The notes beneath the pieces are model-generated. The model saw only the letters and a program-made list of their open reading frames with translations, ran no database searches and was not told the origin of the DNA. 64,000 nucleotides of DNA from positions 18,910,001 through 18,974,000 of the forward strand of contig OZ024763.1 of assembly GCA_964016885.1 (NCBI GenBank), written 5' to 3'. The position numbers and the translations under genes were made by a program. Source of the DNA: Eledone cirrhosa (lineage: Eukaryota). Shown here in pieces: positions 16,843 through 52,751 of this stretch. How positions within the stretch are numbered: position 1 is the first letter of the stretch; each line of letters begins with the position of its first letter.

Positions 16843-17103
16843 TAGGAAAAAGTATGACCCCGACGGCAGAGCTCAAGCCGTTTAGACGGCTATTTCTGGA
16901 CTAAATTAGAATGTTTAGCCTGGTGAAATATATATATATTATAGGAAAATCCCCGGCCGTTTCGACAGCTAGATCGAGCTGTCGAAACGGCTGGGGCTCA
17001 GCCGTCGGGGTCCTCACTCTTTTCCTATTACCCACTCTACTACCCTAAGTATCGAGTACTCTGGTGCGTTATGGTCCACCTGGTTCCTTACCACACTTCC
17101 TTC
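16843..17103. mobile_element. Family B fold-back element pieces (3' half of a hammerhead plus 3' tail)
   Basis: Minus fragment 16843-16910; hairpin 16951-16996 continuing into tail ttcctattacccactctactacc..ccttaccacacttccttc shared with the 31474, 31697 and 52560 copies. Confidence 0.75.
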
Positions 17104-17518
17104 ATTGCTGTAGTGGAGTCTGTGCTGCTGTACGGGTCTGAGACTTGGACACTGACCAAGGAACTCACACAGATGGTGGATGGGTGCTACACGAGAATGC
17201 TGTGGATGGCTCTGAACATTAATCAGTATACACTGAGGATGAAAAGCTCAGAGCTGTATGGGAGCCTCGCGAGTAGCACAGAGGAGACTGAGGTTAGCTG
17301 GACATGCTCACCGACATCCAGAGTTGACACTACACTCAGTGCTCCTGTGGGAGCCCCTACATGGACACACTAGAAGAGAAAGGCCGAGGTTAACGTATAT
17401 TGATGCTCTAAGGACAGACACTGGTCTTTTGGAGACGCAGGACATGACAGCGATAATGAGGGACAGAGACCGTGGAGAGAACTCGTCCATAAACCTCAGG
17501 AATTTTACCCGCCCTAGA
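17100..17518 (+). mobile_element. 3' fragment of RTE/RTEX-like LINE ORF
   Basis: VESVLLYGSETWTLT..DGCYTRML..ALN then RRLRLAGH..RHPE..VLLWEP.HG..RERPRLTYID; frameshifted. Confidence 0.85.
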
Positions 17519-17664
17519 TATATATATATATATATATATATACGATATTAATAAATGGAAACTATATTTATAAAACCATATTTATTTCATTATACATATT
17601 TCAGGGATACCACATTAAATTATGGTATGCCTTTGTAGTAGTAGTGGTAGTAGTAATAGATATA

Positions 17665-17935
17665 ATTTGATTTTAATTTCATATCCACTAAAAGGTTCTG
17701 TCGAGCTGTGGATTACAGAGTCAGGCTAGATCGATACAGATCGAACTTTGAGCTGATCGGTGGCGAAACACGCGTCACCAACCAATAAACGTAATGAAGG
17801 AGTAACCACTCGCCCTTGTTTTATTTTATTATGCTGAGGTTAACTTTGCCTTTCATCCTTACGGGGTCGATAAAATAAAGTACCAGTAATGCACTGGGAT
17901 AATTGCTGGCCTTGTGCCAAAATTAGAAACAATTA
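17665..17935 (+). mobile_element. Composite element: family K segment fused to 3' half of the major SINE
   Basis: Homologous to 31930-32185 including the junction ttat-gcYgaggtt. Confidence 0.6.
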
Positions 17936-19264
17936 TATAGTAGCAGCAGTAGTAGTAGTAGTAGATATAGTAGTAGTAGCAGCAGCAGCAGCAACATTCC
18001 TTTTGTTTTCAGTTGTGTGGCACCAATGTGAGCGACTAAACCAGGAAGATAGGATACAAAGATAATGAGAGAGATAGAAGGGTGGAGTGATGATAGAGAG
18101 AGAGAGGGGGATATATATATATATATATATATATATATATATATATATATACATGTTATATATATATATATATATATATATATATATATATATATATATA
18201 TATCCCAGTACAGCCTGTCTGATGGTCGGGTCGTTGGCGACTAAACTGGCAACCCCACCAAGGTTTCTTGGTGAGGAGAGTGACTTTGGACATCCTGCAG
18301 GACTAAAAACAAAACCTGTCAAAGGGCAAAGGAGCTCTTAAGAGTCAATGACCATCCAAAATCACCGGGAGAGATGACCCCTTAGCCTTTGTCAAGGCAG
18401 AATTCTAGGAGAAGGAAAACTCTGATATAACACCTGCAACTCTCATGGTATCCAATGATGTTGACTTGTTCTTCTTTTTGGTAAATATCATCTTGGTTAA
18501 GAGAGTGGGACTGGCTTTGTGCAGTGCCTTTGCTCACTATAAAAGCTTCACGGCACAGGCATTGCTTTATATCTGGAGATCTCTCTGCACTTGTCGTCAC
18601 ATGGTACCATGGGCCCAGCACTATGTGTCAATAATTGTCACAAGTGTAGTGTTTGTACCAGAGTTTTCAAGTCGCTGGCTGGACTAAAAAGTCACACTCG
18701 TTCAGCACATCGGTAGGGGTTCTCCTACATGGATATAAAGTAGTGGCCGTACTCGAAAATGAGTTGGCAGCCACCATATATATATATATATATATATATA
18801 TATATATATATATATATATATATATATATATATATATATACATATACACATATATATAGATAGCTCCAGAGATAGAAGGGAGGAGTGGAGGGGGAGAGAG
18901 ATGGGGAGGATAGATATCTTTCTTTATTTGCCACAGGGGCGTAGAAAAATTGGACATTACAAGACGTGAGGGCGGGGGTTTAACATTAATAAAGAACAAT
19001 AAACTATATATAATAAAATAACAATTGAAATCCCAGTAGGGGGGGGGGGGGGACGTTACTGCAGGGTTGTTTTACACCCCGTGGATAGAACAACCCTCAA
19101 CACCAGAGGATAGATAGACAGACAGACAGATATGTTTCTTTATTAGCCACAGGGGCACAAAAGAAGGGGACAAATACAAAAGGGGAAGTTTACATACAAT
19201 AAATAGATAGACGAATGACATTGCTGATAACACGAAAGAAACCGGATAGTGTAAAATATTAAAA

Positions 19265-20605
19265 ATATGTCTGTGTGTGTATGTGCATGTATGTGTGTGT
19301 GTCTGTGTGTGTGTATGTGTGTGTGTGTGTCTGTGTGTCTGTGTATGTATGTATGTATGTATGTGTCTGTGTGTATGTGTGTGTGTGTGTGTATGTATGT
19401 GTGTGTATGTATGTGTGTATGTATGTGTCTGTGTGTGTGTGTATGTATGTGTGTCTGTGTGTGTATGTGTGTGTATGTGTGTATGTATGTGTGTATGTCT
19501 GTGTGTATGTCTGTGTGTCTGTATGTGTGTGTATGTATGTGTGTGTATGTGTGTGTGTGTCTGTGTGTGTGTGTGTATGTATGTGTGTGTATGTGTGTAT
19601 GTCTGTGTGTCTGTGTGTGTCATCCTTACGGGGTCGATAAAATAAAGTACCAGTAATGCACTGGGATATTTGCTGGCCTTGTGCCAAAAGTAGAAACAAT
19701 TATTAAAAATAGCACACACACAGACAGGCACAGACACACACAGACACACACACACAGATAGGCACAGACACAGACACACAGACACACACAGACACAGACA
19801 GGCACACACACACAGACACACACACAGACACAGACAGGCACACACACACAGACACAGACAGGCACACACACACAGACACAGACAGGCACACACACACAGA
19901 CACACACACAGACACAGACAGGCACACACACACAGACACAGACAGGCACACACACACACACACACACACAGACGCAGACAGGCACACACACACACAGACA
20001 CAGACAGGCACACACACACAGACACAGACAGGCACACACACACAGACACACACACAGACAGGCACACACACACACAGACACACACACAGACACAGACAGG
20101 CACACACACACACAGACACACACACAGACACAGACAGGCACACACACACAGACACATACAGGCACACACAGACACACACACAGACACACATACAGACAGG
20201 CACACACACACAGACACACACACAGACACACACACACACACACACAGACACACACAGACACACACACACAGAGACACATACACAGACACACACACACAGA
20301 GACACACACACACACACAGACACACACACAGACACACACACAGACACACACAGACACACACACGCAGACACACGCAGACACACATACATACACACACATA
20401 CGCATACACAGACACACACAGACACACACACACGCAGACACATAGACACACACAGACACACACACACACATACACACACACAGACACACACACACATACA
20501 CACACAGACACAGACACACACACACACACACACACACAGACACACATACCCACACAGACGCACACAGACATACGCACACACACACAAACACAGACACACA
20601 CACAT
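19265..20605. repeat. TG-rich then CA-rich compound microsatellites flanking a SINE 3' fragment (19621-19705)
   Basis: Direct inspection. Confidence 0.9.
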
Positions 20606-20724
20606 CTCCCCTTCGCGCCCACCCAATTAATTAAAATTCAAACAAGTTGACTCCACAATAAAATTAAGATTAGTTATGAGAAAGAGAGGAAGAATTGACC
20701 TCAGTACATGACTGGTATTATATT

Positions 20725-51808: not shown

Positions 51809-51891
51809 CTGCCAGAGAGAATTATGTTCTAGGTTCAATGTTTCTGTCACATTTCTTCCTCTCATCCTTTTTGTCCTCCTCTTCACCTCCT

Positions 51892-52091
51892 NNNNNNNNN
51901 NNNNNNNNNNNNNNNNNNNNNNNNNNNNNNNNNNNNNNNNNNNNNNNNNNNNNNNNNNNNNNNNNNNNNNNNNNNNNNNNNNNNNNNNNNNNNNNNNNNN
52001 NNNNNNNNNNNNNNNNNNNNNNNNNNNNNNNNNNNNNNNNNNNNNNNNNNNNNNNNNNNNNNNNNNNNNNNNNNNNNNNNNNNNNNNNNNN
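51892..52091. other. Assembly gap (200 N)
   Basis: Run of N. Confidence 1.
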
Positions 52092-52157
52092 ATCATTGAT
52101 TGTTCAACGGCTAAATATATATATATATATATATATATATATATATATATATATATA

Positions 52158-52541
52158 TGAGAGTATTGAAGTTTGCTTGAAGCATTGTGGAACAATAAGT
52201 AAATATTTATAAGTCGTTTGGAAGCCTCGACAATGCAAATGGGTAAATCTCCGGGTAACAAGGTCCGGTGGTGGAGAGAGAGATATGTAAGTGGGTGTAC
52301 GTTGAGATGCGTGGTGTGTATAAGATGTGTGAGATGTGTAGAATGAAGGGAAGAGTAAAAGAGTTGTTATTATTATTTTTATTCTTTTACTCTTCCCTTC
52401 ATTCTACACATCTCACACATCTTATACACGCCACGCATCTCAACGTACACCCACTTACATATCTCTCTCTCCACCACCGGACCTTGTTACCCGGAGATTT
52501 ACCCATTTGCATTGTCGAGGCTTCCAAACGACTTATAAATA
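52158..52541. mobile_element. Family H fold-back element (159-bp arms, 20-nt spacer), no hammerhead core seen
   Basis: 52204-52362 is the reverse complement of 52383-52541; (TA)n both sides. Confidence 0.8.
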
Positions 52542-52559
52542 TATATATATATATATATA

Positions 52560-52751
52560 TAGGAACCAGTAAGACCCCGACAGCTGAGCTCAAGCCGTTT
52601 CGACGGCTAATTCTGCAGAATTAGCCGTCGAAACGGCTTGAGCTCAGCTGTCGGCGTCTTACTGGTTCCTATTACCCACTCTACTACCTCAAGTATTGAG
52701 TACTTTGGTGCGTTATGGTCCACCTGGTTCCTTACCACATTTCCTTCGTTA
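52560..52751 (+). mobile_element. Family B fold-back element
   Basis: Palindrome centred on ctgcag (52613-52618), long arm ends ccttcgtta then (TA)n. Confidence 0.85.

Follow-up and report, generated by a model that had tools for sequence, protein, structure and literature searches.

The inverted repeats of family B, which recur in a 64,000-nucleotide stretch of the Eledone cirrhosa genome (assembly GCA_964016885.1, contig OZ024763.1, positions 18,910,001 to 18,974,000 of the forward strand; hereafter, the window), are probably head-to-head truncated insertions of a Penelope-like element (PLE), in which two separately primed cDNAs would have run off a fixed RNA 5' end. We put the probability of this reading at about 0.6. 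Within it, twin priming on one RNA is very likely, the stop at which the cDNAs end is likely a fixed RNA end, and a capped transcription start near position -41/-40 of the element is the somewhat favoured identity of that end. A preliminary description of the window had taken family B for the end of a hammerhead-bearing retroelement, which was borne out, and had proposed that cDNA stalls in stem II of the ribozyme, snaps back and primes itself, which is weighed below. Throughout, element position 0 is the C of the GUC cleavage triplet, and L numbers denote loci.

By the protein motifs and the layout of its parent, family B is the terminal repeat of a PLE of the Hydra clade. In the 3.0-Gb genome, the 3' half of the ribozyme has 59,018 exact matches, the 5' half 5,515 and a 29-base tail motif 22,285, with no matches at all for the reversed control sequences. 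For every intact copy there are about ten short ones, and about 90% of arms are without the catalytic 5' half. Upstream of the repeat, long copies carry a 3' untranslated region (UTR) of about 1 kb, then a GIY-YIG endonuclease domain and then the reverse transcriptase (RT), so that RT precedes the endonuclease within one open reading frame (ORF). Its motifs, read in the frameshifted copies L252, L254, L249 and L022, are LRWRTFF, SDKT, CNCPDRSSC, CNLC and CKH; they match the RW(R/K), DKT, CxCX5C, CxxC and CxH motifs by which section 11 of PMC8557442 defines the Hydra clade, and the RT motifs resemble, in a comparison made by eye only, those of Hydra-1_Obim in the supplement to that paper. The Atlas neighbours of the element protein were HTH_animal/RVT clusters at 0.94-0.96; a Pfam search with three protein fragments returned no match, and a PDB search with the element protein returned chance-level matches only. 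The target is (TA)n, as for the Hydra clade, and the layout is that of endonuclease-positive (EN+) PLEs: a pseudo-long terminal repeat (pLTR) in partial tandem, an inverted 5'-truncated copy and an optional tail. Tandem units are spaced by 3,568 and 3,722 bp, which gives a unit of about 3.6 kb. At 77 places the tail runs on into the 5' UTR and the start of the ORF; the terminal-repeat region therefore doubles as the coding unit's 5' end. Every subfamily checked has long copies. The tail motif GTATTGAG (window 52692-52704), which also lies at the 3' end of a Hydra consensus in the supplement to PMC8557442 and has a similar counterpart in another family of the window near 43945, is a candidate protein-recognition site.

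Read in order, intact copies consist of stem I, a core of U3-A8 type closed by a G-C pair, stem II, GAAA, stem III (5 bp, its loop palindromic) and GUC. This predicted fold has what defines a type I hammerhead, namely the core boxes with a 3-8 pair, three helices and an NUH triplet. Among the first 100 intact cores, 77 were U3-A8, 20 C3-A8 and 3 U3-G8 (hand count). The U3-A8 variant is known from Schistosoma PLEs (PMC4209133); the C3-A8 mismatch subfamily (L158, L265, L279 and the 20 cores counted here) is possibly inactive, and long copies of it are still made. The preliminary description had predicted non-inverted master copies with a CTGANGA core: intact non-inverted copies do exist, but the canonical core occurs genome-wide in 3 copies of the 5,515. 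The hammerhead is the minimum-energy fold in one subfamily, and its pairing holds in 93.4% of cells over 11 copies versus 28-52% when slid. Covariation over the 11 copies amounts to one compensatory pair, which is not above shuffles, nor is fold stability (z-score -0.30); the consensus fold favours a competing hairpin over GAAA. Rfam gave no hammerhead match at E<=5 for an intact copy and none for the window among the best 150 of 249 rows, all of them microRNA models. Stem III, described earlier as having 6 bp, has 5 in every subfamily, the sixth pair being absent from some. Nor is the hairpin that precedes it native, as had been supposed: its gacggcta arm belongs to the inverted copy, while intact copies have a different stem II 5' strand, located 30-35 nt upstream of agtcca. 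The latter is loop-II sequence, and it is missing as an apex loop from the copies at 52560 and 16951. Loop II also contains a predicted distal helix, AU-rich and weak, with its 3' strand at -37 to -45; it is predicted in several subfamilies, with 85.5% of cells paired.

The ends of arms are concentrated within this loop. Our sample consisted of the 100 tail matches that come first on contig 1, reduced to 99 because one identical pair was merged. In this set, 75 copies were inverted, 18 were not inverted and 6 ran through the core, at variance with the earlier statement that the family always folds back. Ends fell in -45 to -34 for 49 of the 99 long (tail-bearing) arms and for 56 of the 75 short arms; in the 99 sampled arms the hazard of ending there was 0.070 per nt, against 0.003-0.012 elsewhere. 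Only 9/99 long and 8/75 short arms ended within the 3' strand of stem II. Non-inverted copies have the same preference: from 54 TA-flanked loci, 4 with short-arm remnants were set aside, and the remaining 50 (hand count) ended at -39 to -41 in 33 cases, at -36 to -38 in 9 and at -42 to -44, where target and element letters are indistinguishable, in 8. Overall, both arms, non-inverted copies and the jump junctions treated below stop in the range -34 to -45, with a mode at -39 to -41. The sharp hot spot expected inside the ribozyme is thus real, but it sits in loop II, beyond the stem II 3' strand.

To characterize the palindromes, we compared the two arms of 74 pairs, leaving out one pair with two tails. 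The short arm reached at least 3 nt further 5' in 32 pairs, the long arm reached further in 21, and the two ended within 2 nt of each other in 21. Snap-back geometry was fitted by 3 of the 74 junctions; 17 had zero microhomology and 25 an inserted filler. There were 65 distinct junctions among the 74, in agreement with the earlier view that palindromes arise recurrently and do not descend from one palindromic master. Opposite the apex the ends are fixed: in 315 arms, TATA follows directly after +19/+20 in 112 of 144 short arms and at +98 in 125 of 171 long arms. Since either arm can carry sequence that its partner lacks, we infer that both are RNA-templated. Of 47 pairs, 42 agree between their arms in the subfamily mark of loop I, against a mean of 14.5 after shuffling, which is consistent with one RNA or one source. 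Another apparent regularity, an asymmetry at +3 with C in long and G in short arms, was rejected as query ascertainment, as 0 of 70 position-sampled long arms carry it. In L069:772-1231 the short arm changes subfamily between about -30 and -8, a change that would be a template switch inside the repeat common to both RNA ends; a search for subfamily chimeras yielded this one clear case, too few for testing strand transfer.

More decisive are the jump products. In a survey of 70 loci with the tail joined to the 5' UTR (74 of the 77 matches), 17 were jump products. The 5' ends of the first run in these products, which are shielded from trimming, lay at -35 to -44 in 12 cases and at +1 in 2; the others were at -4, -22 and -61. 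The jumping arm, which starts at +20 in 6 of the 17 and at +98 in 9, continues into the 5' UTR. The +20 arms thereby carry 5' UTR sequence missing from the partner, and these products tell more strongly against snap-back than arm lengths do.

The hexamer around the A at -40 is TCAGTC, TTAGTC or TTAGTT; it is kept across subfamilies despite their diverged loop II, and we take it to fit the Initiator consensus. Penelope promoters are internal and have an Initiator, according to the relevant parts of PMC2377424 and PMC3846280. An added G or C was present at 12 of the 33 ends at -39 to -41 and at none of the 9 at -36 to -38 (Fisher p=0.04, hand count); in 5 cases a G immediately precedes the -40 A. 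Added bases were counted only on TA-flanked non-inverted ends; inverted junctions were not used, because their alignments absorb the base or share it with the partner arm. PMC3287187 explains an extra G at full-length 5' ends by copying of the cap. In the literature searched, with subscription journals outside its coverage, we found neither a start site inside a PLE hammerhead nor strong-stop palindromes.

Long copies behave differently at the stop. Among 49 loci running into the ORF, some of which are neighbours in one cluster, 42 extend upstream past -75, a single one stops at the hot spot, and the other 6 have their ends at +2 to +75. The stop site is therefore passed by 42 of 43 ORF-bearing copies versus 9 of 58 sampled tail arms (p=2.7e-18). 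Likewise, 48 of the first 100 intact cores are in head-to-head pairs (hand count), versus about 9% passing per arm. A second template class is required because 42/43 ORF-bearing copies pass the site; neither a plain structural stall nor a single capped RNA would give this proportion. What is needed is a circle, a read-through RNA or an efficient jump.

A smaller class of ends coincides with the predicted cleavage site. TA lies close upstream of +4 at 57 loci; leaving out 13 that are palindromic joins gives 44 ends (hand count): 25 at +1, 2 at 0, 5 at +2, 1 at +3 and 11 at -2 to -8. The +1 peak has a binomial p of ~5e-17 against a flat spread over the 13 possible positions, and position 0, not +1, would be preferred if RT stalled at the stem III base. 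The peak suggests that the ribozyme cleaves in vivo. Copies bearing 5' UTR also end at +1 or +2 (L046, L266, L276, L311 and L313), for which reason the upstream copy is likely cut too, be it in a read-through RNA or by a ribozyme completed from afar. An end at +1 or +2 is present in L134 as well. The class is small, with 81 reverse-strand matches compared to 1,096 in the survey of non-inverted hot-spot ends. Locus L293 consists of five tandem 274-bp units of -61 to +213, an array that may stem either from a small circular RNA copied in rolling-circle fashion or from slippage at a later time. We considered, and rejected, classification of the family as a non-LTR retrozyme: its copies are dispersed and head-to-head, its parent encodes RT and endonuclease, and L293, the sole short tandem, lacks the core, whereas each retrozyme unit has a complete hammerhead.

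These observations could be accommodated by the following course of events. The endonuclease would nick each strand of a (TA)n target. Of the two arms, one finishes at +20 and the second at +98, each presumably as an RNA-templated product, and both stop in the range seen as well in non-inverted copies and jump junctions. The stop would be the RNA 5' end at the Initiator-like motif in loop II; a transcript beginning there would start inside its own hammerhead, without the catalytic 5' strand, and the short copies would be strong-stop products. End-joining with 0-8 nt of trimming and with fillers would form the apex. Long copies would derive from a second class of template without an end at this site, for which a circle cut by the ribozyme, a read-through RNA and an efficient jump are candidates, and the small class of ends at +1 would record ribozyme cleavage. 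A bolder and rather doubtful extension is that the 5' copy may be half a ribozyme for which only the far 3' end of a full-length transcript can supply the missing catalytic strand, such that cutting at both ends would give a circle. If true, the circle would template all long and tandem copies, and the uncut capped RNA strong-stop palindromes only. The ribozyme would then be a checkpoint for full length, and PLE replication would pass through an obligatory strong-stop step, like that of LTR elements.

LTR elements make strong-stop DNA with strand transfer, and L1 twin priming employs two target primers on one RNA. The proposed course has from the former the priming near the RNA 5' end, run-off and jump, and from the latter the two target primers. 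It is unlike LTR strong-stop synthesis in being target-primed, with no tRNA, and unlike L1 twin priming, which inverts without duplicating, in that both arms copy the same region.

Several points weigh against the proposed course. If one capped linear RNA were the template, full-length copies should end at -40, and 1 of 43 does. Two short products bearing 5' UTR run past the stop site (L293, to -61, and L305, to -74). The signal from added bases is weak, with p=0.04 from a hand count; C or GC at -39, which cap copying leaves unexplained, makes up 5 of the 12 additions, and much of what looks like an added G in inverted copies is part of the partner arm or stays unassigned. The 3' strand of the weak conserved helix, at -37 to -45, is exactly where the stop is. 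Asymmetric deletion at palindrome centres after insertion could mimic some of the cases in which the short arm exceeds the long one, but it cannot account for the jump products. Ribozyme-independent insertion in vitro, described in PMC11167929, speaks against cutting being obligatory, and the 20 of 100 cores with C3-A8, found in a subfamily that nonetheless has long copies, count against obligatory ribozyme-made circles. Most short copies may have had full-length or short copies alike as their source.

Twin priming might instead end at a boundary in the template, comparable to that of telomerase, where the distal loop-II helix or a bound element protein halts RT and the RNA continues upstream. 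We regard this as possible without favouring it; in the form of a protein-bound boundary on the primed repeat it is a fair rival. The position of the helix and its recurrence in several subfamilies speak for it, free passage through an unbound second repeat would explain the 42/43, multi-unit tandem copies exist (L321/L322 and L327/L328), and poly-A/T fillers fit slippage at a stall. However, the AU-rich helix is weaker than stems I-III, which RT crosses; one subfamily change weakens it while the Initiator-like motif stays; the added G is not predicted; and multi-unit RNAs would be required for the ORF-bearing copies. The snap-back of the preliminary description, in which one cDNA stalls in stem II and copies itself, is close to published self-priming. 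It draws on the loop-I mark common to both arms, on correlated arm lengths in long pairs (a hand-picked list), on the preference for self-priming expressed in PMC3846280 and on the three junctions that fit. A shared RNA template accounts equally well for the shared marks, though, and a fold-back arm cannot hold sequence absent from the first cDNA, which is why snap-back fails: the short arm lies beyond the long one in 32 of 74 pairs, zero microhomology or filler is common at junctions, and +20 arms have 5' UTR sequence. Moreover, the apices are without the native stem II 5' strand and loop, one palindrome in the window (52560) has no spacer, the hot spot is also present without inversion, and the fixed +20 end is left unexplained. 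We thus consider snap-back very improbable, and the preference for self-priming stated in PMC3846280 does not hold for the Eledone cirrhosa family.

It is similarly improbable that short copies are a non-autonomous family, remobilised from their own start site or descended from a few palindromic masters. Copies that keep -40 to +98 do hold the putative start site and both priming sites, and they are abundant, at the ten-to-one excess given above. A few palindromic masters are nevertheless excluded by the 65 distinct junctions, while the same end positions recur on 5' UTR-bearing templates and the subfamilies checked each have long copies. As an added source of RNA, non-autonomous copies are compatible with run-off from a fixed RNA end. 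Finally, the ends could mark a splice acceptor, with cDNA homology stopping at an exon junction. A pyrimidine run with AG at -40/-39 and -35/-34 is in place, and an intron of D. virilis Penelope ends at helix I (PMC4209133); but upstream element sequence is joined at the stop site in 0 of 305 arms, and there is no recurrent exon motif longer than 3 nt, which leaves this explanation with next to no weight.

Among described systems, the family is like the Hydra-clade PLEs with a C-terminal endonuclease (e.g. Hydra-1_Obim; PMC8557442) in its motifs and (TA)n target, in a C-terminal GIY-YIG and a hammerhead close to the 3' end, and in having an inverted 5'-truncated copy with an optional tail. It departs from what that source gives for the clade in its longer unit (~3.6 kb, with a 3' UTR near 1 kb, versus <3 kb), its 78-nt tail (versus 30-40), its tens of thousands of copies, its non-canonical ribozyme and the ~90% of arms without the catalytic 5' half. 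Placed by motifs and by-eye comparison, it appears to be a distinct family within the Hydra clade. Poseidon of Anolis (PAc) has, in vitro, two internal RT start sites bounding a tail (PMC11167929); here too, two fixed 3' ends bound the tail near the 5' end of the ORF unit, and the target is likewise AT-rich. In contrast to the PAc reads reported there, which never end at the cut site, ends here peak at +1 and at -41 to -39; the inverted arms are given no account in the reported PAc work. With the PLE hammerheads of PMC4209133 the ribozyme has in common type I topology, the U3-A8 core, the G10.1-C11.1 pair and the palindromic loop III. Unlike those described there, it has a stable 5-bp stem III, a long interrupted stem II with a distal helix and a stem I with an internal loop, and most copies start inside loop II. 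The inverted pLTRs of Adineta Penelope (PMC3846280) are similar in their head-to-head repeat, one-sided tail and Initiator-like motif in the pLTR, whereas the self-priming model put forward for them is contradicted here by arm geometry.

How inverted and tandem pseudo-LTRs of PLEs form, and whether their hammerheads cut in vivo, are presented as open questions in the parts of PMC3846280, PMC8557442, PMC11167929 and PMC4209133 that bear on them. The element class, the inverted arms, the tail and the U3-A8 core are already known. The points bearing on mechanism are the location of the stop within the ribozyme, the jumps that start from it and the peak at the predicted cut site; they make the open mechanism directly testable, and the family offers tens of thousands of young insertion records for it.

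The window itself has five copies, which together span element positions -65 to +98. As described earlier, four are head-to-head inverted copies (16942-17106, 31474-31667, 31697-31905 and 52559-52751), all with GAAA, stem III and the GUC triplet and none with the 5' core strand. The fifth (16842-16927, minus strand, cleavage C at 16862) is a lone tail-less arm of -65 to +20 with native loop II, native sequence out to its end and no fold-back, a further departure from the claim of invariable inversion. In the 16951 copy, the short inverted arm (16942-16974, minus strand) runs from +20 to about -30 with stem III deleted, and the tail-bearing arm (16975-17106, plus strand, cleavage C at 17006) covers about -30 to +98. 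Deletions removing stem III are found in L216 and L107 as well; two of the three run between the 3' strands of stems II and III, which are identical. The 31474 copy comprises a tail-bearing arm of -40 to +98 that ends on the A of the Initiator-like motif (31474-31612, minus strand, cleavage C at 31572) and a short arm of -34 to +20 (31613-31667, plus strand, cleavage C at 31647). In the 31697 copy, a tail-bearing arm of -26 to +98 (31697-31822, minus strand, cleavage C at 31796) and a short arm of -43 to +20 (31842-31905, plus strand, cleavage C at 31885) are separated by an A/T-run filler (31823-31841), likely a product of slippage on the U run near -43; similar fillers are present in L005, L215 and L235. 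This short arm is not a copy of its partner, because it reaches 17 nt further 5' (-43 versus -26). The 52560 copy is the zero-spacer palindrome, joined at -36/-36, with a short arm of -36 to +20 (52559-52615, minus strand, cleavage C at 52579) directly followed by a tail-bearing arm of -36 to +98 (52616-52751, plus strand, cleavage C at 52652). All ends of the window copies lie in (TA)n except 17106, where the tail of the 16951 copy is fused directly to a degraded long interspersed element (LINE) fragment (17107-17500) that reads LLYGSETW and that we presume to be RTE-like.

Other repeats of the window include head-to-head palindromes with canonical CTGANGA cores (4998-5361, 32277-32513, 32928-33188, 39747-40001 and 43827-43894), which probably represent other PLE families; their apices are upstream of the core, and inversion is therefore not bound to stem II. 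At 38321-38688, 52212-52533 and 37832-37902 there are long palindromes, almost perfect and close to TA runs, with no CTGANGA core in our scan. A tandem repeat of ~93 bp at 2449-2921, with CTGATGA in four units, is a possible retrozyme-like array. A dispersed family resembling short interspersed elements (SINEs) has more than 10 copies (e.g. 17833-17936, 23029-23633 and 25795-26514), and in two related copies (17702-17930 and 31959-32183) a CTGATC-G...GAAA segment is fused to a SINE-like 3' part. Two 2.5-kb inverted copies, 66% alike, are located at 57395-59917 and 61476-63955.

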